Assembly: GCA_000934665.2 (NCBI GenBank)
Contig: KZ537976.1
Coordinates: 62,001 to 126,000, forward strand
DNA: 64,000 nucleotides
Direction of reading: 5' to 3'
Source of the DNA: Catajapyx aquilonaris
Taxonomy: Eukaryota
The notes under the pieces were generated by a model. That model was not told where the DNA came from and ran no database searches. It worked only from the letters and a program-made list of their open reading frames with translations. Shown here piece after piece: positions 6,001 through 60,425 of this stretch; within the stretch, counting starts at the first letter, position 1, and each line of letters begins with the position of its first letter. Position numbers and translations under genes: made by a program.

Positions 6001-9000
6001 TGCAGCATCAATACAGGATGCAAAGTCTTGCGATCGCAGTCCCTGGAGGCATGAATAATTTTACCAATCCTAACAAATTTAACCTTTTTCTGTGTCACAG
6101 AGTGGTCCTGAGAAGTGGTGAAAGTAGCTAAATATTTGAGCACGGGTTTTTTTTAACTGCAAGGGGGAGGTGGACACAAGAATACTCTGTGGACGTGACC
6201 CTCGGTGGGGATGGAAGCAAACACACGATGTAGGTATAAGTTGAAACCAGACCGCGGTCGAGATAGCTTTGGGGCGATGCCACGAGTATAGGGTATAAAG
6301 GGTTGGAGGGTGTGTAGGGGGAAAGGGGGCAGAGTTTTAATTTTCTGCGCTGGTTGGTTCTGAGCATGGACAAAAGAGATAAAGTACTTCCGGGAGCAAT
6401 TACTTTGTTTCGTCCATTGCTTGCCAAAGAAGCGAGCTTTTATGGCTTCCGTCTATCCCCCCCCCCCTCCTCTATCTGCTGAAGCGCCTGACTTAAGACG
6501 GGGGACGTGTCATGCTTATCCATTCATCTGGATGTAAATCTCCGGCTGAATATTTATGCCCAGAGAAATTAAGAAAAGAGGAAGTGGTGAAGGGAGGGAG
6601 GAAGTGTGAAAGACCGCGAATCGCTCGCCAATTGTTTTAACGACCTTTTGGCAGTGCTATTTTGCAAAACGACTCTTCACTGGATTTCGCTAATTATTAT
6701 TTTATTGTTATTATTGTTATTATCTTTATGGTTAAGTATATGGTGTCTTAAGACGGTTAGCACCCTGATAAAGTGAGAGGGCGTTTAGCAATGCCAGGCC
6801 GCTCTCTTTAAACTTCTATTTAATGTTATTATTGTCCCACACAGAATATAGTACGAAGTGCATGTATTATTTTATGTCAACCCTGCAACATTTTTCTGTT
6901 AATTTGAGTCAATAGTACCCTCTGAAGGACTTCTTAAAAAATTGACACTCAAAAGCCCTACTGATTTTTTTTGCCAGGACTAGAGAATACATTTTTACGA
7001 ATATTTTTACAGCATAGGCTATAGTAGTAAGGTTGAGCCTCCTTCTCACAAATCCGTTTTCTGTGGCACATGGCCAATGAATTTTTCTTTACTCACAAAG
7101 GAGACTTCACCTCTTTTAACTCGCGTTTCTGCTGATCATACCAGAAGACTAGTTTTTAAAAATGAATAAGTACAAGACAAATTTTCGATATCGCCGTTAC
7201 CTGTCAAGTGCTTCATAACAAAACTTTTCGCCCGAATATTTGGAAGTTGCCTGGTTTGTTGAGACATTTCTCTCCCATTTGCTCCGTTCCACTCTTCCTC
7301 CTGCATCATCCGTGTGGGAACCAATAAATAATGCATGTCTCAGTCCCCCCCTTTCGGACACCTTCCAGTGGTCCCTTCCTTTACCCAAGCTGAATTATTT
7401 GGGCCTAATGCTCTCTCCCTCTCCCCTCCCAAACTAGAGTCGATATAGTCCGCCCTTAAGAGCACTCGGAAAGTACTATGTTGTGGTATGGAAATCAGAT
7501 ATTCTCTTCTTGGAGAGACCCTGGGAGAGAGTGTGGCCTGGGTTTAGTTAGGAATTCCAACAGCTTCTGGGGTCAGCTTCTTCCTCCCTGGATGAGATGT
7601 GTATACTTCCCATAGCTATACAGTCGCCAGTTCCATGCATGGCAGATGATTTTGGTGCCATTCGGATGATAAATATGGATGGAAGCTTGTGTGGAAAGCG
7701 GGAGGATAGTTTGGCTATTTTTTTAGTTTGGAAATTCCGAGAGGCTTTGTGGTCCGGTTTGCAGGAGAGAGAAGTACTATAAGCTCATTCAGAAGCCGGA
7801 CATAAAACCGGGTGGGGGCAGGATATCGCTTTCAACCCGGGTATGAATCGGATGATAAGCTTTCGCTATTTCATTTCCATTCAGGACTTAATTCTCAGAT
7901 TAACAGGAGGAAAGGAGGCTGGGATGGGGGAGGGGGGGGGATAATCCTCTTGACATGCCTATTGAGGCTGGTGGGGATTGCCGGAAAGAGATATCACGGA
8001 CGGGCTGCCAACTGACACCGCCTCATCGGAATTGGATATTGTGTGTGGTCCCGTTGCACTTCAACAATGGTAATTTTCAAGTGGGTGGAGAGGGGGAGAG
8101 AGAAATCTGACAGAGGATCAACTGATGCTCTAACTGGATCCATTTGGGGAGAGGCTTGATGTCCCAGGAACATGAAAGCTCTGGAGGGTTCTGGCGCAGG
8201 TTTTGGAAACCACAATTTTCGGCAGGGGTGAGGATCAATACAACCCACCCACACACACACGTTGGACAAGAATATACGGACCTTTTCATTGCTGTTAATC
8301 TGCTCCAAAAGTACCTGCATGTAACGATGTCGCCAGAAAAGTGCAACTCTGGACTGTTTATATATCATTTAGGAGGTTCATGAAGAGCAAGAGGGAAACT
8401 CTCTGCTGGCTTCCCTTTTCTTCTTTTCCCTTACTTACTTAATTACTTAAATTCTTCACGGAAAGGCGGACAGGCACATTAGCTTGCTATCCAAACCGAC
8501 GAAATTCTGTGACAGCAAAGGGCCATTTTCTCAAATTGCCACTCTCAGGACTTGTCACTTTTGGCCTGGGAGAATTTCATCGCGAGGGGTCGCAGGAAAT
8601 GCGAATAATTATAGGAATGGTTTGTGCGCTGTTTGCGTTAATTCAACGCCATTCCCCTTTAGCGGTAAGCTCGTTATAGGCTTTTACACAGACCTAGACG
8701 TAAACATTTCAATGTGACGTGAGAGATATTACGACACATATTTCTTAATATCAAGGACCGGTTCTAACTCGAGCTATTTAAAATTGCATAAAGTCGCTTA
8801 ACTATCTCGATTCAGGATTCGCATTAATTAAGTGAAAATTATTATGAATCGGACACGTACCTTGGCTACATTAAAAATTTGGGAACCCGGACTGAATGCA
8901 GCCTGCAAATTTTCCGCTTTTGTAAATTGCAAGCGCTAAAACTATAAATAGATGCTAAGCTTGCAGGTGCAAGTGAGAGAAGGTTTTTTTCCTGCAGAAA

Positions 9001-27540: not shown

Positions 27541-28863
27541 TACACATCCTCAGCGACAGCATCGGACGGGAAGTCAGGAGGCTGGGACATCTGATCTTCG
27601 CAGACCTCCACGGCGACACTCACTGTCAGTACAGCTGACTAGGCCTACTGTTAAGGACTTTATTAGACACAAAATCAACTCAAAAATCAATTTTAAAATC
27701 AGCTGACTACTGACCAGGATGTTCGTCTACTTGACCACCGTCGTCGTACTCAGGTGTCATCCTTCGCCTGGCTCTGGACTGGTGCAACACATGCTCGGCC
27801 TGTCCTTCTACATCGCTTCCTCCACGTCCCACCACTGATGTCCTACCCGTGCTCGGTCTAGAAGCAATTATGTCGACAGGCGTTTTGAAAAATCCTTTCG
27901 AAACAATTGACTCCAAACCGAGCGCGGGTGGCAGTATAGTAGTGATCTTGATCTGGACTACGTCGGCATAGACAGGAAAGCCTTAGCGCTGGTCGGAGTG
28001 GGTGGGGCCTTGTCAAAAAGCCTGCCGAAGGAATCATTTCCAGGCCGAGCGCGGGTAGGACTGGGAAAGACCTTGCCAAAAAGCCTGTCTTTGGCACAGA
28101 CTTTTCGGCGAGGTCCCACCCAGTCCTACACACCATACTGTGTTTATCCATCTTGGTTGGTACCATAACTTCGGTTCCACGATCTGGCAGCACTGGTACA
28201 CATCCTCAGCATCGGACGGGAAGACAGGAGGCTGGTACATCTGGTCTTCTCAGACCTCCACGACGACACTCCGTACCGCTGACTAGGCCTACTGCTAAGG
28301 AGTTTATATTAGACTTTCCTGGCCGTTAAGCCCTTACACAAATGCACAAAATCAACTCAACAATCCATTTTAAAATCAGCTGACTACTGACCAGAATGTT
28401 AGTATTCTTGACCGCCGTCGTACACTCAGGTGTCGTCCTCTGCCTGGCTCTGGACTGGTACAACGCGTGCTCGGCCTCTCCTTCCACGTCGCTTCCTCCA
28501 CATCCCACCACTGATGACCTACCCGCGCGCGGACTGGAGATAATTCTGTCGACAGGCTCTTTGAAAAAATCTGTCAGGAGAATCACTACCAGGCCGAGCG
28601 CGGGTCGTAGTAGTGGTGATCATGATCTGCTCTCCGTCGGCACAGGCAGGAAAGCCTTGGCGCGGGTAGGACTGGGTTGGGCCTTGCCAAATATCCTGTC
28701 GAAGGAATCATTTCCAGGCCGAGCGCGGGTAGGACTGGGTTAGGCATTACCAAAAAGCCTGTCTTTGGCACAGGCTTTTTGGAAAGGCCCCACCCAGTCC
28801 TACACACCATACTGTGTTTATCCATCTTGGTTGGTACCATAACTTCGGTTCCACGATCTGGCA
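27541..28863. repeat. Tandem duplication of a 650-670 bp unit with internal sub-repeats
   Basis: Copy 1 is 27541-28190, copy 2 is 28197-28863; 28115-28189 is identical to 28789-28863. Motif ccaggccgagcgcgggt recurs in both orientations. Confidence 0.92.
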
Positions 28864-29689
28864 CGAACTTTGGTCCACAGATCCCCGATTTCTGTGGCAC
28901 TGGTCCCGCGCCAGGCTGAGAGTGGCGCTGCGCTCGTTAACCAGTCACGGCATAGCCTATCACAAAGGACAATTGTAACTGGTATCTAAAGCTGAAATAA
29001 AAGTTTTAATGGCATTTTAAGAGATCTATTAGGTCGCACGAGAATTTCGTCCCAAGTACGAGAATTTTGGAAAGTTGGTACGAGGATCCGAAGCTCTGCG
29101 TCTCCCACGCTTCACCTCTTCCGGACAATCGAGGCTGCAACCGTGATGAGATGATCTCCCCCCACGTCGCTGTGCCAGGGATGTCGGGTGTAAGGACTCT
29201 TCACTTCCGGCTGCAAACTCTCCTGGTGGTCTCTTCTGCCCACTTCCGGACTTCTCACCGCTGAACTCTGGACATGCATGACTTCGTGACCTCCCTGCCA
29301 CGACTGCTGCTTCCACCACTGCTGACTGCCTGCTGGGCTGCTACAACTGTTGGATTTCCTCCTCCCTCACCGTTGCCTAGCCCCCTGATGTCGGATCTGC
29401 TAACCGTGAAGACCCTCGCATTCCCAATGGTTATGGAAAGCCTCTTCTGCTCGTACGGTAGTTCTTCCTTCCGTCCGATAGCTCGGTCCCAGTATAGTTG
29501 ACTGGTTGAGGTTCTGTTCTCGTCTCTCTGCTTCGTATTGCTTTGCTGCTGAGGAAAAATTGATATGACCAAGGTGCGTGATGGTACATGAACGTGGATG
29601 GGTGAAGGAAAGTACTGGATGCGAGGAGTTAGATAGGAGTGCCCACCACCGAGATGGTCCTGAGGCCCCCTTGGCACATTGCACTGTGG

Positions 29690-30910
29690 CAGTGGCCTTG
29701 GACAGTGCACTTACCAGTCATATTAGATCACGACTGTCTTGATGCGTGTCTTGGTGGTTATTTTCCTTATGCTTTTCTTGCATTTTTACTGGACACAGAC
29801 AGCAGCAGTGGCGAAAGCGAGACCACAATCACTCGGGTGGTCGAAAAGATGACCTCCAGTAATGAGCTCAGACACGAGTAGTTCTTGAATGGAATAACAA
29901 ACTCCTGACTGAGATCATTATTGGAAAGCAACTTACACATAAGCAGGTCGTGGTTTTGTTTGCTGAAATAATTATTGTCATTACTATTACTAAGCAAGCT
30001 ACAGTATCAATGTCAGCAAAGTTGTCGGTCATTTGGAACTTTAGCAAGATATTATTCGTACTCGGCTGTTGGACTGTGGCCTTGGACTGTTCACTTACCG
30101 GTCATTTTAGATGACTACTGTCTTGATGAGTCTCCCTTGAAGCACACTGCCGAAATAAAAGTACTGAAACAGAAGCGAAACAAAATTGCCAGAGAACAAC
30201 ACGCTGGCCTTCGATTTTTGACCCGATCCCTGCCCAATGTCACGCTCAGCACTATTGAAAAAGATATTAGACATTTTGTTGCACTAGCAATAACAAACCT
30301 CCTTCTGTTGTGCGATGACCAGTGGGTGCCACGTTGGTCCTGCCCAATTTGATGAATGCAGGCGACGAATGTACACTGATTCCGTCAAGTTCGACGCACT
30401 CAGGAGGTACGATATGGTGAACCCTGTGTTGGTCATTAGGGCTGAGAAGCACTTAATATATCATTAGATGACTCTCAGTTCTAAGTACCACCTCAGGAGT
30501 TGACCTCTCCAGTCATCTGTCCCCATCCCCATACCCAGCCAACACCCGAAATGATTTCTTTTTCACTGAATTCGTCGGAAAGCGAATGCTGTGAACCCTG
30601 CGATGGTAATCAGTCGTGAGAAACATTTAATATCATCGCCACATTAGATGTCTCTCAGTACTGACGACCACCTGCAGGAGTTGACCTCTCCATTCATCTG
30701 TCCCAGTAGGAGCTTCTCACAACACGAGTCCGTCACTGCTGAAATAAAAGTCCTGAAACAGAAGCGAAATAAAATCGCCAGAGAACAACACGCTGACATT
30801 CGGTTTTTGACCCCATCCATGTCCAATGTCACGCACAGTCACCATCATCTCCATCCCCATACCCAGCCAACACCCGAAATGATTTTTCTTCTTCACTGAA
30901 CTCATCGGAA
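29690..30910. repeat. Cluster of short diverged direct duplications
   Basis: About 29691-29743 matches 30076-30128; 30145-30245 matches 30734-30834; ccatccccatacccagccaacacccgaaatgattt occurs near 30523 and 30851. Confidence 0.88.
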
Positions 30911-49523: not shown

Positions 49524-50040
49524 TGACGACACCGGCGCTAGTGGGCATCTGCCTAGGCGCAACTCTATTCCTTCTGACGGTTGCTGGCGTGACCTGCTTC
49601 TGCTACCGGAGGAGGGCGGCCTACCACCACAAGCTGACCAAGAGGAGCCCCGAGAAGCCTCTGACCCTTCGAAGGCCAACAGCTGTCAAGAATCCGGCCA
49701 GCGGAAGCCACTACCTCAAGAAGAGCCCGAGTCCCACCGGGGCCAGGAGCCCACCTGGCAGCAGTGGAGGGGCCAAAAGCCCCAAGGGCGCGACCCCAAC
49801 CGGGGAGCAGCAGTCCCCGGTCGGAGGGAACCAAAGAGGAGAGTGTCTGGTGCTGGGGAAGGATGAAGGAGGAGGATCGCTGTCTCCTCAGGGCGAATGC
49901 AAGGAGGTGGTGGTCAAGTACTACACCGAGAACGAGAAGGAGAAGGCCTGCTCTCCTTGCAAAGAGGAGGTGGAGCTCAACGAGAAGCAAGGGGAGAAGG
50001 AGCTCGTCGGGAAGCTCGGAATGCTCCACTTCAAGCTGAG
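49524..50040 (+). CDS. Syt4: Synaptotagmin-4 exon: transmembrane helix, Cys/basic juxtamembrane segment, linker, first strand of C2A
   Basis: Acceptor ttgttttttccag, donor AG|GTCAGT. Encodes TM ALVGICLGATLFLLTVAGVTCFCY then RRR, motif RRPTAVKNP...HYLKKSPSPTG as I recall from insect Syt4, and GKLGMLHFKLR. 517 nt, phase 1 to phase 2. Confidence 0.95.
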
Positions 50041-51863: not shown

Positions 51864-54800
51864 ATACGTTTTTTTGGTTTTTTGACCCTGGCAACCCAAA
51901 CCGTGGGGCATATTCCAACACGTGTGATTGAGTTTTCCATCCCAACCAGTTCCCTCGCTCGCCTAATTATACTTCTTGCCCGACGGCCCAGATTTAATTA
52001 ACAATGATTAATTGGAACTATCTGACCCCCCCTGCCCTGGTGCAAATGGCCGTTTGATCTCATATATCCGGGTGATTGTTCGGCTCAAGATGCACATCCA
52101 TGTTAGAATTTAAATATTATTTTTCTTCTAAGACTACTTGTGCCAATAAAGCAACAGTGAATTTGGGCGCACAATTCCTCCACTCATGGCTATATACCTC
52201 TCGAAAGAGATTCTCACTGCTTATCTGGAGTTGGGCGTTATCCTCAAGACCACTCCCCGGTAAGCCTTTCCCCGGAAGCTTGACAAATCCGGACTCGTTT
52301 TCTCCAGTTCATATATCCCTCGGAAAAGGGGCCTCCGCTGGGTTGTTTCCCTCTCACGGGCAATCAGGAGGAACGAAGAAGGAGACCATCTATTGTCGCC
52401 TGGCTGGAAGAGGAGGATCTTATACAGCAGCGGACCGCCCTGTAAAATATAATAAAACCAGAGACTCCGTCACCTGGGTTATCATGCACGGCCCGGGATG
52501 TTATTTTTTAATACGTCCTCCGGGAATTTCCGGGGATCCACTCCCCCGGAACCAAGTTTTAAGCACTGGGAGGTGATGGAATAAATTTACCCCGGAGCGA
52601 TTTTTTTTTTATCCGGGTTTCCAACAGCTAGGATCCAGCAAAAGATTCAGCTGGAACTTCGCCACCTGTCGGAGTCATTTGTTCACACTCTTATGACTAG
52701 AGAGAGAGCGACGACGACCAGTTTTCATACATGCCGATAGATCATATTCAGGATATGGTAATGATGCACTCACTGGATTGCATTGGACTTTTTCCAGCAG
52801 TAAATGTATTCATCACTATAGTTTTCCTAGAGTTTCCTATCCTTCTGCTGTATACAATTTGTAAGCCACTTGGCTCCTTACAGTACATGCTGTACGTCCC
52901 AGGTAAAGTTGGCAATTACTCTTGGATTACCAGCACGTGTCGCTGTGGCAATCCCAACGCTGGCAACAATTCCCGAAAACAAAATTAGCAAGACAGAGCA
53001 GGAAAGTTGTAATCGCGCCCCAGCAACTTCATTAGCATCTTGTAGGCCCCGGAGTCAGGTGTGGTTGTCAAATTGTCATAGCCAGGCTCTCTGATACTAG
53101 GGACATCCTTTCCATTATAGATTCAAAGTGGAAGCCAGCATAGTTGGGAGGAGGACAACAAGAGGAAACGGGCGATACTGCGAAACGTGTCTCGCATCGA
53201 TTGGCTCAGGCCCTTCCCTTTTCCTCTCAAACGAGATTTATATGTTCGTTCCAAATTCCTCCCAGGCTGTGCTGTTAAGGGATGTTGCTGAATCCTAGAG
53301 CAGCTGCCGGACCTTTAAAAAATTGGGGGGTGGGCGGGTAGGGTTGACGTCTTTTTAGAAGGGGAGGAGGAGGGTTTCTGGAGACACTTTTCGTTCCGTC
53401 TGGAGTCCCTTGGGAGCTGAGGCGACATTCCTTGGAGGAGGACTTGCTTCTTTCAGCAGTTTTACGCCTAACACCACCTCGCGACGGGGTAGTTATCACG
53501 AGTCGAAGAGTGAATCTTTTTATGGGACGAGGGACCACCCCCCCTTTTTTTTTGCTCCTTCCTACAGCTCTAAGAGATTCATTTATTGTCTCACTGCGGG
53601 GACTGCTGCTGCTTCTCGAGAGAGTAAAAAAAGGAGAGGAAGAGGAAGTGCACAATAAAAGTTTCTGGAGGGACACTTGAAGATGGGGTGAAGAGGTTTT
53701 GGGTGGGATCGAACCTGTGGGCGTTGGAATCAAATTGATTTATATAGGGTTTTGTACGAGCAAGAGGGCGCCTGCTGGGAAAGGGGTCATTGGCATTTCC
53801 TGCACTTGCTGAGAAGACACTGCCTGACATTGTGACTCTGGGCTAATTAATATCAACTGTGGCCTATATTTACAAGTGCAAAACCGTCGAGGGAGAGCGA
53901 GAGGGGGGAAAAATCCGATGATTTAGTAATTGGGAGAGATGCGGTTTGAAATCGGCCAGAATGAGATGCTCTGCTCCACTAATTGGCGCGCTGTATTTGG
54001 GAATTGGCAATTAGGAAGCCCCCCCGGAACCTTCCCCATTCTTCTCCTGCCCGCAAAATGGAGCAGGCCCGATTGGCGTGTTCCGGGGGCACCGGAAGAG
54101 ACTGCGGCTCTTTTGGTGCGGAAAAAGCGCTTAATCGGGGAACAAAATTATTTTTGTAGACCGGAATGACACGTTTCCGGGACTAAAGACTCGTTAGTGT
54201 GGTCCTTAGTCCTTGCATGTTGGTCACATCGTCTGAACCAGATGGCTCACCCTGTATTCCTTGCAGGAGGCCCATACCCCCAAAACAATTTTGGGTAGTT
54301 CCTTCTGCCCCAGGGCCAAGCCCGAATTAATGGGACGGGCACTCCTTTAATTAAGGTAATTCAATTACAAACGGCACGCTGAATGGACCGCCGCGCTCAG
54401 GTAATGGATAGCAAGAGGGAAGGGGTGGGTGGGTACTTCAAACCCTGGCCCTGTTGTTTTCTCTGGGTGTCTGAAAATGCGGTGCCCCCCCTTCATCCAG
54501 CAGCACCGGTGATTTATAATCCGTTCCTGTAAGCTCGTCTCCAAGATAATCGGGCTGGACAGCTAATGTGATGAATGCTTAGCCACCTGGCTCGTTCAGG
54601 GGAATTTTACCCACATTGCAGGCACGCCATAGTGTTTTTAGCCGGTGGTGGTGGTGTTGCGGGGAGGGATGGGGGTGATATGAGCTGGGGAGGATGGTCG
54701 ATGATTATACCACATGCAAGTAGCAAAGTGCGCTCACCGCTGGTTCAATACTTCGTGGTTTTTATGGCGCAGAAAGATGCAGTGAATTGTCTGATAAAAA

Positions 54801-55004
54801 AATGGTAAAGTCACTCACCTGAAAGCAAATTTGAATATGCACGTTGCCTAGTGGGCAGTGCGTAATATAACAAGTCCCATAAATAAACCATAGCAGCTGA
54901 ATTTGCGCTTGTCATTACAAGGAAAGTTACAAGGTAAACAAGAGCCGACCGCCACTCACGACATATGCCGCGGTCGGAAACATTAACGTTTTCCTTTGAA
55001 CCTA

Positions 55005-55146
55005 AAAATGAGGCATGACAACTTTTATTTAGCACTGAATGGGTTTTGCGCGTATTTTTAGTACATCATATTGTGAATTTGTGATCAGCCGGCGTCTTCT
55101 TCAAAGCTGACTACCACTCTTCGTATGTAATGGATGCGTCAATCAA
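55005..55146 (-). other. Gene A terminal non-coding exon with poly(A) signal
   Basis: Acceptor cctatttttgcag; AATAAA on the - strand at 55029-55024; 3' end approximate. Same arrangement in the paralogue. Confidence 0.7.
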
Positions 55147-55404
55147 CTGCAAAAATAGGAACAGTTACATAAAATAAAACCCTTCAAATTCTGCGACAAA
55201 GATGGAGGAAATCAATTCGTTTCACTGAATTACTGAGAATGTTACGATGCAACATAATTATGACAATTAAAAGCAAGGAAATAAAATGTATCTTACCGAA
55301 TGACCATCTCCTGATCCTACTCGGCGAATTGAGAAATTAAGATGGTTTTTAGATTGTGAAATATTTTTGGGATATTCTCTTCATTACCTTGTTTAGACAC
55401 TGCC

Positions 55405-55430
55405 TTACTTGGCAGGTGGATTGTTGGCAA
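55405..55430 (-). CDS. Gene A exon 4 coding part (VANNPPAK-stop); exon runs on as 3' UTR to 55297
   Basis: Acceptor ctttttgcag, TAA at 55407-55405, donor CG|GTAAGA at 55296. Both splice sites are conserved in the paralogous copy. Confidence 0.78.
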
Positions 55431-55669
55431 CTGCAAAAAGTACAAGCTAAAATTAGGCACTGGACTTCAGTATATAGGTAAGGGAAGTGTCACTTATGAT
55501 GCCTTATGAGACCATGTCCTTATTGCTTCAACAAGTTGCGACTTGCAACAACCCATAACAACTGGCATGGATGTACTGTATAGTGAAAGCTAATCCTAAC
55601 AATTATTATTGGCAAGTTTGGGACAAGGAGCCAATGGCGAATACCGTTGAGGGTGAAAGTCTCAGTTAC

Positions 55670-55696
55670 CGTGCTTAGCAATGGCTTCCGAAAGAC
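55670..55696 (-). CDS. Gene A exon 3, 27-nt micro-exon (GLSEAIAKH)
   Basis: Acceptor cttatttcttttttgcag, donor ACG|GTAACT, symmetric phase 1-1, open frame. Confidence 0.8.
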
Positions 55697-55823
55697 CTGC
55701 AAAAAAGAAATAAGACAATTTAGTTTTTCCCTATTTACAGTGAATTTTCTCGGTATTACTCGAATCACTTAGAAAGAAGTGTATGTTATGAATTAGATGG
55801 TTTAAAGGCAAGTCTCAATTTAC

Positions 55824-55856
55824 CTGCTATTATTTGACTGATGTCTGGATCGTCAG
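55824..55856 (-). CDS. Gene A exon 2, 33-nt micro-exon (ADDPDISQIIA)
   Basis: Acceptor atttctggtttcag, donor CAG|GTAAAT, symmetric phase 1-1, open frame. Confidence 0.8.
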
Positions 55857-56007
55857 CTGAAACCAGAAATAATTCAATTTATTAATTTTCTCGGTAATGG
55901 TCAACTTCAGTCGTCCACAGATGTTAGTTCCATGGATAGGTTTGATATGAAATATAATTATTATAAACTGAATGTCGCATATGCCATAAGATTGAGAGGT
56001 GTATTAC

Positions 56008-56077
56008 CTGGAACGGGAGATGTGCGGACACTGATGGCCACGAGGAGAATCAAAAAGCAGAACAGGAGGAGCTTCAT
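56008..56077 (-). CDS. Nested secreted-peptide gene A, coding exon 1 (signal peptide MKLLLFCFLILLVAISVRTSPVP)
   Basis: Start context CAAAATG, basic residue followed by a hydrophobic core, donor CAG|GTAATA, phase 1. Confidence 0.85.
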
Positions 56078-56127
56078 TTTGGACCTTGTGTCTTTGCCGG
56101 TTGCTATTCGAATTGTAGTGTCCTGAC

Positions 56128-56417
56128 AACAGGACTGTTGACTATTTCCAGGTTAACTGCAACAATATATTGATGTTATGTCGATATCCTGTGTTGTTGA
56201 GTGAGTTCTCTGAATTATTGTTCGTGCTCCTAGACGGACTCCTTGTAGCGTTATCCTTAATATATAATTATAGTTCCTGAATGAACTATATATACGCTAC
56301 AAGGAGTAGTCCGTCTAGGAGCACGAACAATTCAGAGAACTCACTCAACAACACAGAATATCGACATAACATAAATATATTGTTGCAGTTAAGCTGTAAA
56401 TAGTCAACAGTCCTGTT
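56128..56417. mobile_element. 290-bp hairpin (foldback / MITE-like) element
   Basis: Arms 56128-56251 and 56294-56417 are inverted copies with 4 substitutions and two 3-nt indels, 42-nt loop; flanked by direct GAC (56125-56127, 56418-56420) as a possible target-site duplication. Confidence 0.8.
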
Positions 56418-56674
56418 GACTGTGATTGTTACACTAGACTCTCTTGTGTTATATCGCTATTCTCTGTGGTGATCACGCGGGAGAGACGTGGGCCTCTTCA
56501 GTTGCAAATTGTATAGTTTCTATCATTCCATTGGTAACAATCAAAAATTATAAATAAACTGCGAAGTCAAATGGAAGCACAAAGCTCCGATTGTAGCTAC
56601 TACCAAAGCACATTGGCTCACTATCATCCCACCGTTCTACATCTTTTTTGTAATTATTACGCACTGATTGTTTC

Positions 56675-57344
56675 TATTAATCATTACAAAATTTATTACA
56701 CTAATTTTCAAGCTAATTTTAGTACATGATTGGGATCAGCTAGTGTCTTCTTCAAAGCTGACTACGTCCTGTGGTATGTAATGGAAGAATAATCAGAGTC
56801 TACAAAAATAGGAGCATTAATTTGCATATAAATAAAATGTGAAAAATTTGCATCAGGGTTTCAAAAAATCACTTGCACATGCTTTCTGGCATGGTAGGGT
56901 TCCCGGTAACCATTTCATGTACAGAGGTGCCATTTGGTCTTCGCAGTCTCATGACCGAAATAATTAGAATTAAATAAGGAGTGATTATGTCATATTTTAT
57001 GTTGCGGATTCAGCCGAATAGGATCGCATATTTAAATCAAAATTATCTACGCAAAATAGAGATTTGTAGTCAACTTAAGAATTGACCACAAGAAAGCCAC
57101 CTTTGAGATCCAGAAAAACCTATGCCTTCAATAAGTTTCATTGCATCACTGAAAATGTTAGCATGCAACGTATGACGATTATAATAGCAATAAAATAAAT
57201 GTAACTTACCGAATGCAACACCCACGGGTCCTGCGAGGCGAATTGAGAAAGGAAGATAGTTATTAGATAGTAAACCATTTCTGGGATATTGTTCTTATTA
57301 CCTTGTGTAGACGATGCCTTACGAGGCAGGTTACTAGGCACCAC
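56675..57344 (-). other. Paralogous gene B: last two exons (57344-57210 and 56799 to about 56675)
   Basis: Diverged direct repeat of 55083-55436 (57136-57350 matches 55220-55436; 56734-56837 matches 55083-55180). TTGCAG acceptor, CG|GTAAGT donor, cctatttttgtag acceptor and AATAAA (56697-56692) are all retained. Confidence 0.75.
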
Positions 57345-57521
57345 CTGCAAGGAGTATAATGAGTTATAAAATTCCGAAAATAGTTATTGTGCCGGAAGTA
57401 ACTCTGATATTGAAATCGACGAATTTTTTCCAACGCAAAGAGACAAGATAACATACTACAAAAAAGGCGATTTACACTCGAGCCAAAAAAAATGTAATTG
57501 CCAGCATTAATCCGGTCTTAC

Positions 57522-57794
57522 AACAGAGTGTAATGTTCTGCTCCGATGTAAAGCCCTTTTCGCGGGACTTGGATACAAATGGCGAAATTCTCAGGCAGCT
57601 TTGCCGCCAATCCTCGGACGTCGCCTTTTCCTTCCCTGGGTACTCTCGGACCCAGGGTTTTAATTCCGGCGCTAACTTGAAGGCGAAGACAAACTGCGCC
57701 ATTTTCTCCGGCCAAAGACCTCCTAGCCTCATCCGGTCCCTTGAACCTCTCTCCTCCATCCGATTCTTCTCTCGAGGACATCGTGATACGGAAA
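57522..57794 (-). CDS. Candidate internal coding exon of gene B (unknown protein)
   Basis: GC-richer than its flanks; acceptor tactatgcag, donor T|GTAAGA; 273 nt, phase 1-1, open; would splice to 57344 to end ...EQNITLCCGA-stop. No recognisable homology. Confidence 0.35.
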
Positions 57795-58086
57795 CTGCAT
57801 AGTAATCGGGACCACCGGATGACATAGATTAGAGGCCCAGGATTTTGAGGCGCATCACAACGCCCGGGATGGATATTGCGGCCATCTTGCACGATGGAGG
57901 TGCATTGCGCCATTTTTATGCCTCTAAAGAGAGGTTGGGGGGTTGAAATGGTTTAATGTAACATACTTTTCATATACCAAAAGATGTTAATAACGGTTAT
58001 TTACAATGAATATTTTATTCCCAGTAGTAGTGGAAAAAATGTCAGTGTTACTTACAAGCGTGTCCTTTTTCCCTTCTTTTTGGCAG

Positions 58087-58303
58087 GTACAAGTTCGACA
58101 AGAACGCTCTGGTGGTGACGGTGATGAAGTGCACTGACTTACCGGCCAAGGATGCGACTCTTGGCAGCAGCGACCCTTACGTCAAGCTGCAGCTGCTTCC
58201 GGACAAGCAGCACCGGGTCAAGACCCGGGTGCTGAGGAAGACGCTGAACCCTATTTACGACGAGGACTTCACTTTTTACGGCATCAATTACAACCAAATC
58301 CAG
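58087..58303 (+). CDS. Syt4: Synaptotagmin-4 exon: C2A N-terminal part
   Basis: Acceptor cttctttttggcag, donor CAG|GTGAGT. Encodes [72 protein letters not shown], a typical synaptotagmin C2A; frame continuous with the previous exon (AG+G=Arg). Confidence 0.97.
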
Positions 58304-60269: not shown

Positions 60270-60425
60270 AGTATCATGCTACATTTCGTGGTGCTGAGCT
60301 TCGACCGTTACTCCAGGGACGATATCATAGGAGAAGTGTTCTGCTCCTTGGCCACAGTTGACCTTTCGCAGGCTGACAATCAGGAGGTTGCCCTCTACCG
60401 AGAGATTCTACCACGCAGTCTGAAG
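60270..60425 (+). CDS. Syt4: Synaptotagmin-4 exon: C2A C-terminal part; gene continues beyond the window
   Basis: Acceptor ttattacag, donor AAG|GTAAGA, 156 nt, phase 0-0. Encodes [61 protein letters not shown] carries the Asp-to-Ser change diagnostic of Syt4/Syt11. Confidence 0.97.

Follow-up and report, generated by a model that had tools for sequence, protein, structure and literature searches.

A candidate micro-exon gene for a predicted secreted peptide, antisense within a synaptotagmin-4/11 intron

The question raised by this locus is whether the intron of a conserved neuronal gene holds, on the opposite strand, a small gene for a secreted peptide, or whether the features that suggest such a gene have another origin. 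The DNA analysed here is a single stretch of 64,000 nucleotides, referred to below as the window. A preliminary description, made from the letters of this stretch, had placed a gene of four very short coding exons on its minus strand, within an intron of Syt4, and had proposed that the spliced product is a secreted peptide of 51 amino acids.

The host gene

The proposed antisense position within a Syt4 intron agrees with what is found on the plus strand, where exons match insect and crustacean synaptotagmin-4/11 proteins and one of them carries a C2 domain. The exon bounds given here are approximate and were obtained by tblastn with three homologues.

49524-50040, plus strand: host Syt4/11 exon encoding the transmembrane segment and linker, on the 5' side of the host intron
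58087-58303, plus strand: host Syt4/11 exon encoding the first part of C2A (Pfam C2, E 6e-18), on the 3' side of the host intron
60270-60425, plus strand: host Syt4/11 exon, located by tblastn with the same three homologues

The candidate gene lies antisense within the 8-kb intron between the exons at 49524-50040 and 58087-58303. Among the best-scoring insect and crustacean matches, the linker exon reaches 46-52% identity. The C2A exon is 83% identical to its counterparts in decapods, termites, and Timema stick insects, and 85% identical to two unnamed proteins; for the named hemipterans the values are 75% (Bemisia), 78% (Rhodnius), 79% (Macrosteles and Ranatra), and 82% (Clastoptera). Decapods and polyneopteran insects are about equally close. 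In a collection of 5.8 billion proteins no near-identical protein was found for the host gene; identity peaks at 52% in the linker and at 85% in C2A. Judged from these identities, the host gene is a pancrustacean synaptotagmin-4/11 and its source lineage is poorly sampled in the protein database.

Structure of the candidate gene

Reading the minus strand from 56077 to 55005, and splicing it by coordinates with a script, reproduced the predicted gene structure exactly. The four coding exons (70, 33, 27, and 26 nt), the GT-AG introns, and the uniform phase 1 that had been described are all present, and the script-spliced peptide is identical to the 51-residue product given before. The splice scores listed here come from approximate consensus matrices and are meant for ranking only.

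56077-56008, minus strand: exon 1, coding part, 70 nt, with 23 signal-peptide-like codons plus one base
56077, minus strand: ATG of exon 1, in the context ccaaaATGaag
After 56008, minus strand: donor of exon 1, CAG/gtaata, phase 1, score 4.2
56007-55857, minus strand: intron 1, 151 nt, GT-AG, 32% GC, with an AATAAA inside it at 55883-55878
55856-55824, minus strand: exon 2, 33 nt, symmetric with phase 1 at both ends; acceptor weak (1.8), donor good, CAG/gtaaat (5.3)
55823-55697, minus strand: intron 2, 127 nt, GT-AG, 30% GC
55696-55670, minus strand: exon 3, 27 nt, symmetric
Before 55696, minus strand: acceptor of exon 3, ttcttttttgcag, very strong, score 10.1
After 55670, minus strand: donor of exon 3, ACG/gtaact, weak, score 2.5
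55669-55431, minus strand: intron 3, 239 nt, GT-AG, 41% GC
55430-55388, minus strand: exon 4, 26 coding nt, stop codon TAA at 55407-55405

The acceptor of exon 3 is one of only 10 sites on both strands of the window that score at least 8. Ranked with the same matrices, the coding splice sites of the candidate gene (acceptors 1.8, 10.1, and 3.3; donors 4.2, 5.3, and 2.5) are weaker on average than those of the host Syt4/11 gene (acceptors 6.9, 9.6, and 5.6; donors 3.6, 8.4, and 6.6), which counts against a real gene.

Beyond the stop codon the structure is less definite. The preliminary description had drawn a further intron from a donor after 55297 to an acceptor before 55146, leading to a terminal exon with AATAAA. 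Both splice sites and the AATAAA are there, while the path into them is ambiguous, since exon 4 has three usable donors: after 55409 (CAA/gtaagg, 4.0), after 55388 (AAG/gtaatg, 4.1), and after 55297 (3.3), the last being used when exon 4 reads through from 55388 on to 55297.

55316-55297, minus strand: candidate exon 5, 20 nt, 3' UTR in the models with a 51-residue product; acceptor tag weak (0.8), donor TCG/gtaaga (3.3)
55146-55005, minus strand: terminal exon, acceptor tatttttgcag (6.5), AATAAA at 55029-55024

A separate 20-nt exon at 55316-55297 is likely, and we infer that the transcript ends near 55005. Use of the donor after 55388 or 55297 yields the product of 51 amino acids. With the donor after 55409, the frame runs via the 20-nt exon into the terminal exon, where a stop codon 8 nt in leaves a product of 59 amino acids. 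The distance from the stop codon to the last junction is 37 nt when the 55388 donor is combined with the 20-nt exon, and 108 nt in the model drawn before. Nonsense-mediated decay follows a 50-55-nt rule, and the six-exon form is somewhat more attractive because its shorter distance suits that rule. In every spliced model the ATG at 56077 is the first ATG, and its reading frame of 51 or 59 amino acids compares with at most 11 amino acids for any other.

The predicted peptide

The first exon had been taken for a signal exon, and by heuristic its N-terminus does look like a signal peptide. Lys2 is followed by 13 consecutive hydrophobic residues (3-15) with a mean Kyte-Doolittle value of 3.53, and the residues at -3/-1 are A/S for a cut after residue 16 and V/T for a cut after residue 19. 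The heuristic looks for a short, positively charged n-region, a hydrophobic h-region of about 7-15 residues (too short for a membrane span), and small uncharged residues at -3/-1, and all of these are found. The first intron is in phase 1 at codon 24, 4 to 7 codons past the likely cleavage site.

The predicted mature peptide has 32-35 residues, with five prolines near its ends. It is Cys-free and net acidic, as had been proposed, with a net charge of -1 or -2, and a reading of the spliced peptide finds no Tyr, Phe, or Trp after the signal peptide. The amphipathic helix that was also proposed gains moderate support: the 18-residue window at residues 27-44 has a hydrophobic moment of 0.44, a value attained in 139 of 5000 shuffled versions of the mature part. 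A neuropeptide precursor was considered and ruled out, as the peptide has neither dibasic cleavage sites nor a C-terminal Gly amidation signal.

Probability of a chance structure

To ask how often such a structure arises by chance, a chain finder was used that needs a signal-peptide-like ATG reading frame, a donor that closes it, two internal exons, and a terminal coding exon. The signal-peptide shape was defined by K or R first, an uninterrupted hydrophobic run of 11 residues or more that starts within 9 residues, and no acidic residue before the end of the run; internal exons were of 15-60 nt with acceptor, donor, and open frame. The thresholds were placed at the weakest observed sites, that is, after the case had been seen. 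When both strands of the real window are searched (128 kb), a donor closes just one signal-peptide-like first exon, that of the candidate locus, and no other locus passes the full search. A relaxed search, with a hydrophobic run of 8-9 residues and lower site thresholds, adds a reading frame at 8599 on the plus strand, which has a donor and gives no chain. Another frame at 29742 on the plus strand has a signal-peptide-like start, with neither a usable donor nor an exon chain.

In 1000 windows simulated with a third-order Markov model (128 kb each), 69 signal-peptide-like reading frames occurred; 6 had a donor and none gave a full chain. When first exons closed by a donor were taken without selection for a signal peptide, 32 of 9486 could be extended to a chain in the simulated DNA, and 6 of these 32 chains reached the observed summed splice score of 27.3, while 1 had symmetric internal exons. 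For such unselected first exons in the real window outside the locus, the corresponding count is 0 of 93. The product of the simulated rates is ~2e-5 chance chains per window, or 4e-6 at the observed splice score. Beside the candidate, the real window holds 1 signal-peptide-like frame (at 29742, plus strand) vs 0.069 per window expected from simulation; real DNA may therefore yield ~10 times more chance starts than the simulation, and with tenfold more of them the chance rate rises to ~2e-4 per window. A chance origin of the gene structure is unlikely.

Three further features were not used by the chain search and were examined after the case had been chosen. GC content is 45% in the exons and 34% in the introns, a contrast matched in 31 of 8990 placements of the pattern along the window (0.34%); four of the five introns have 30-32% GC, and the window has 44%. 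The 290 nt upstream of the ATG are free of ATG in any frame, and only 32 of 2069 ATG-to-ATG gaps are as long (1.5%). The arthropod start consensus is [CA]AA[AC]ATG; the start context of the candidate, CAAA-ATG, fits this pattern, which is seen at 92 of the 2071 ATGs in the window (4.4%). The GC contrast, the ATG-free leader, and the start context all fit a gene.

Searches for relatives

For protein searches, a 45-residue unspliced read-through containing exon 1 was used. No protein of 24-79 amino acids shares three 5-residue words with it, and a full HMMER pass gave only two marginal matches (E 4e-4 and 9e-4). These are proteins of 1258 and 944 amino acids whose aligned stretches include non-coding read-through, and they were dismissed as relatives, the stretches being irrelevant. 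An exact scan of metagenome contigs gave 0 matches for a 24-nt stretch of exon 1 and 0 for the 27 nt of exon 3. Within the window, tblastn with the spliced peptide and blastn with exons 1-3 returned only the locus itself and a partial copy of its 3' part. Rfam and tRNA scans of 54000-58100 were empty, and Pfam gave no match for an antisense reading frame of 94 amino acids. The missing relatives are weak evidence against the gene because the source lineage is absent from the database.

The neighbouring copy and the palindromic element

Two features near the locus were absent from the preliminary account.

56690-57344, minus strand: truncated tandem copy of the stretch from exon 4 through the terminal exon, 75-77% identical
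56127-56418, no strand assigned: palindromic MITE-like element, with 93-nt arms that are 95% complementary and inner 27-nt arms that are 96% complementary

The likeness between the candidate gene and the copy starts in the last ~15 nt of intron 3. The copy has ~260 nt extra in one intron and retains the acceptor and donor dinucleotides, as well as an AATAAA at the matching position (56697-56692). Its exon-5 equivalent has better splice sites (acceptor 5.7, donor 4.7, on the ranking scores used above), its exon-4 equivalent has a TAG in phase 1, and no counterpart of exons 1-3 was found within the window. Identity between the two copies is 58% in the coding part of exon 4, 70% in exon 5, 64% in exon 6, and 74-77% in the introns. 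Exons are thus not conserved over introns in this comparison, and the coding part of exon 4 is the least conserved segment. The copy shows local duplication and decay and is uninformative on coding constraint.

The palindrome ends 50 nt upstream of the ATG, and most of it lies within the 290-nt ATG-free leader. It has no second copy in the window and no Rfam match. It could be part of the promoter or the 5' UTR, or else an insertion that disrupts them. If transcribed, it would fold into a long hairpin.

Between the truncated copy and the C2A exon of the host gene lies a further stretch of ~500 nt (57452-57952), in which open frames (116, 118, and 144 codons) overlap on both strands. It is unique in the window, and its reading frames have no Pfam match. 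An unclassified repeat may be present here, or else the DNA that took the place of the copy's 5' half.

Comparison with known micro-exon systems

Bicycle genes are candidate salivary effectors of aphids, phylloxerans, and scale insects, secreted and enriched in the salivary gland (Stern and Han 2022, PMC9168663). They have ~17 exons on average, with a minimum of 5 in characterised members, and usually carry CYC motifs, although some divergent members have none. The candidate gene shares with them an N-terminal secretion signal, unusually small internal exons, introns that are all in phase 1, and the absence of sequence-detectable relatives outside the lineage. Both of its internal coding exons (2 of 2) and its last coding exon start at codon position 2. 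However, its exon number (4 coding exons, 5-6 with UTR exons) falls short of the many micro-exons of bicycle genes, and the CYC motif is missing, the mature part having neither Cys nor Tyr. With the coefficients printed in the paper, the gene-structure classifier for bicycle genes gives the model of the 51-residue product a score of 0.96 vs a cut-off of 0.72, which is a measure of resemblance and not proof of homology, since the classifier was trained on the genome of one aphid only, Hormaphis cornu (PMC9168663). With other phases the score falls to 0.20 or 0.003, and for a gene this small it rests nearly wholly on the phase count. A sternorrhynchan origin of the DNA is not indicated, because the host C2A exon, at 83% identity, is nearer its counterparts in decapods, termites, and stick insects than those of the named hemipterans (75-82%).

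In the micro-exon genes (MEGs) of Schistosoma, longer terminal exons enclose 10-20 symmetric exons of very small size, 3-81 bp (bioRxiv 10.1101/2023.06.21.545858; see also PMC10399815). MEGs are described as specific to Schistosomatidae and carry a hydrophobic and aromatic motif of Phe...Phe...Trp followed by a basic residue just after the signal peptide (10.1101/2023.06.21.545858). The candidate has in common with MEGs a first exon for the signal peptide that leads into tiny symmetric exons. MEG products are secreted, as is predicted for the candidate, and both kinds of gene are prone to be missed by automatic annotation. The differences are that the candidate has just a pair of symmetric micro-exons (33 and 27 nt), with at most two further short exons (22-43 and 20 nt), vs the 10-20 of MEGs, that the hydrophobic and aromatic motif is missing, with no Phe or Trp after the signal peptide, and that it lies in an arthropod genome and not in that of a schistosomatid.

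A more general pattern is that phase-1 introns are over-represented close to the signal-peptide cleavage site in secretory genes of animals (PMC1626468). The candidate follows it, with a phase-1 intron at codon 24 near the predicted cleavage site and then phase 1-1 exons. The pattern is one of general architecture, does not define a family, and is silent on function. The candidate fits neither bicycle genes nor MEGs: it has too few exons, the motifs are missing, and the taxon is wrong or unsupported.

Alternative explanations and interpretation

The locus is probably a real protein-coding gene, restricted to its lineage and nested in the Syt4/11 intron on the minus strand, with an orphan and predicted secreted peptide as its product. 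It would look similar as the relic of a small gene family, duplicated locally and now silent, if decay were recent and the palindrome had cut it off from its promoter. In favour of a relic, the neighbouring copy, lacking exons 1-3 and having a TAG in phase 1, is clearly dead or partial, the exons are no better conserved than the introns between the two copies, and the exon-5 acceptor scores 0.8 in the candidate vs 5.7 in the truncated copy. The palindrome at 56127-56418 is directly upstream and may have damaged the promoter. We nevertheless consider a relic unlikely, as no damage is seen in the start codon, the frame, the AATAAA, or any of the six coding splice sites, and an ATG-free leader of 290 nt that takes in most of the palindrome is compatible with a role of the element as 5' UTR or promoter.

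Coding itself can be questioned in two ways. Antisense intronic transcripts are common, and their commonness favours a spliced non-coding RNA, such as a modulator of the host Syt4, in which the 51-codon frame would be fortuitous or untranslated; this reading also gains from the absence of any coding signal in the 3' half (the two or three short exons beyond the stop, of which a copy lies next door), from a frame of 51 codons that is too short for a codon-usage test, and from a paralogue comparison that gives no coding constraint. It is quite unlikely in view of the first ATG, which in every spliced model opens the longest reading frame in a favourable start context, of a textbook signal-peptide shape that is rare in such DNA (69 in 1000 simulated windows), and of a frame that is kept open across two exons, each of them divisible by three in length. 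Very unlikely, in our judgement, is the case of no gene at all, with ATG, hydrophobic run, and six splice-like motifs coinciding in AT-rich intronic DNA. The candidate was picked from a very large scan with thresholds fixed after the fact, one acceptor (1.8) and one donor (2.5) among its six coding splice sites are weak, and the searches with the exon-1 read-through found no homologues. Against this stand a chance rate of ~2e-5 per window, or ~2e-4 with tenfold more starts, and the GC contrast (0.34%), the ATG-free leader (1.5%), and the start context (4.4%), which come on top of that rate.

If the locus is the protein-coding gene that we favour, the nascent chain would be sent to the ER, where signal peptidase would cut after Ser16 or Thr19. 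A peptide of 32-35 residues would be freed, Cys-free, slightly acidic, and flanked by prolines, and its residues ~27-44 could form an amphipathic helix that would bind, outside the cell, to a membrane or a partner protein. Its role might be immune, glandular, or signalling. With every intron in phase 1 and internal exon lengths divisible by three, exon skipping, duplication, or loss leaves the frame intact, and the truncated tandem copy next door shows that the locus turns over locally. A bolder reading, which we regard as improbable, is that the gene is either the visible member of a fast-evolving family of phase-1 micro-exon genes for secreted peptides in a pancrustacean outside Sternorrhyncha, or a gene that arose de novo in the Syt4 intron. 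If true, the family variant would make it a convergent counterpart of bicycle genes and MEGs, or a much older relative visible by gene structure alone, the de novo variant would point to the adjacent palindromic element as a source of the promoter, and in either variant the frame-neutral exon structure would be a means of diversifying a peptide that is extracellular and amphipathic.

The present status of the favoured gene is that of a well-formed prediction and not a discovery, with an architecture of a familiar kind. Small orphan secreted peptides nested in introns come as no surprise to arthropod genomicists. If expressed, the locus would be a secreted-peptide gene of the kind that automatic annotation misses, with 51 codons over four exons, two of them at most 33 nt. 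It would extend the combination of a signal exon with same-phase micro-exons beyond bicycle genes and schistosome MEGs, the groups where it is studied as a system, and would offer a concrete locus for the origin and turnover of such genes inside introns of conserved neuronal genes.

Other features of the window

Two further observations concern the window at large. A GC-rich region at 27700-29000 (51% vs 44% in the window) has long reading frames on both strands. TRF, with a longest period of 500, reported nothing there; two of the frames on the plus strand (27952-28329 and 28626-28919) encode near-identical peptide segments ~670 nt apart, a spacing that suggests a long-period direct repeat. 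Over the whole window and both strands, AATAAA occurs 101 times vs 72 expected from dinucleotide shuffles, in which the largest count was 88.
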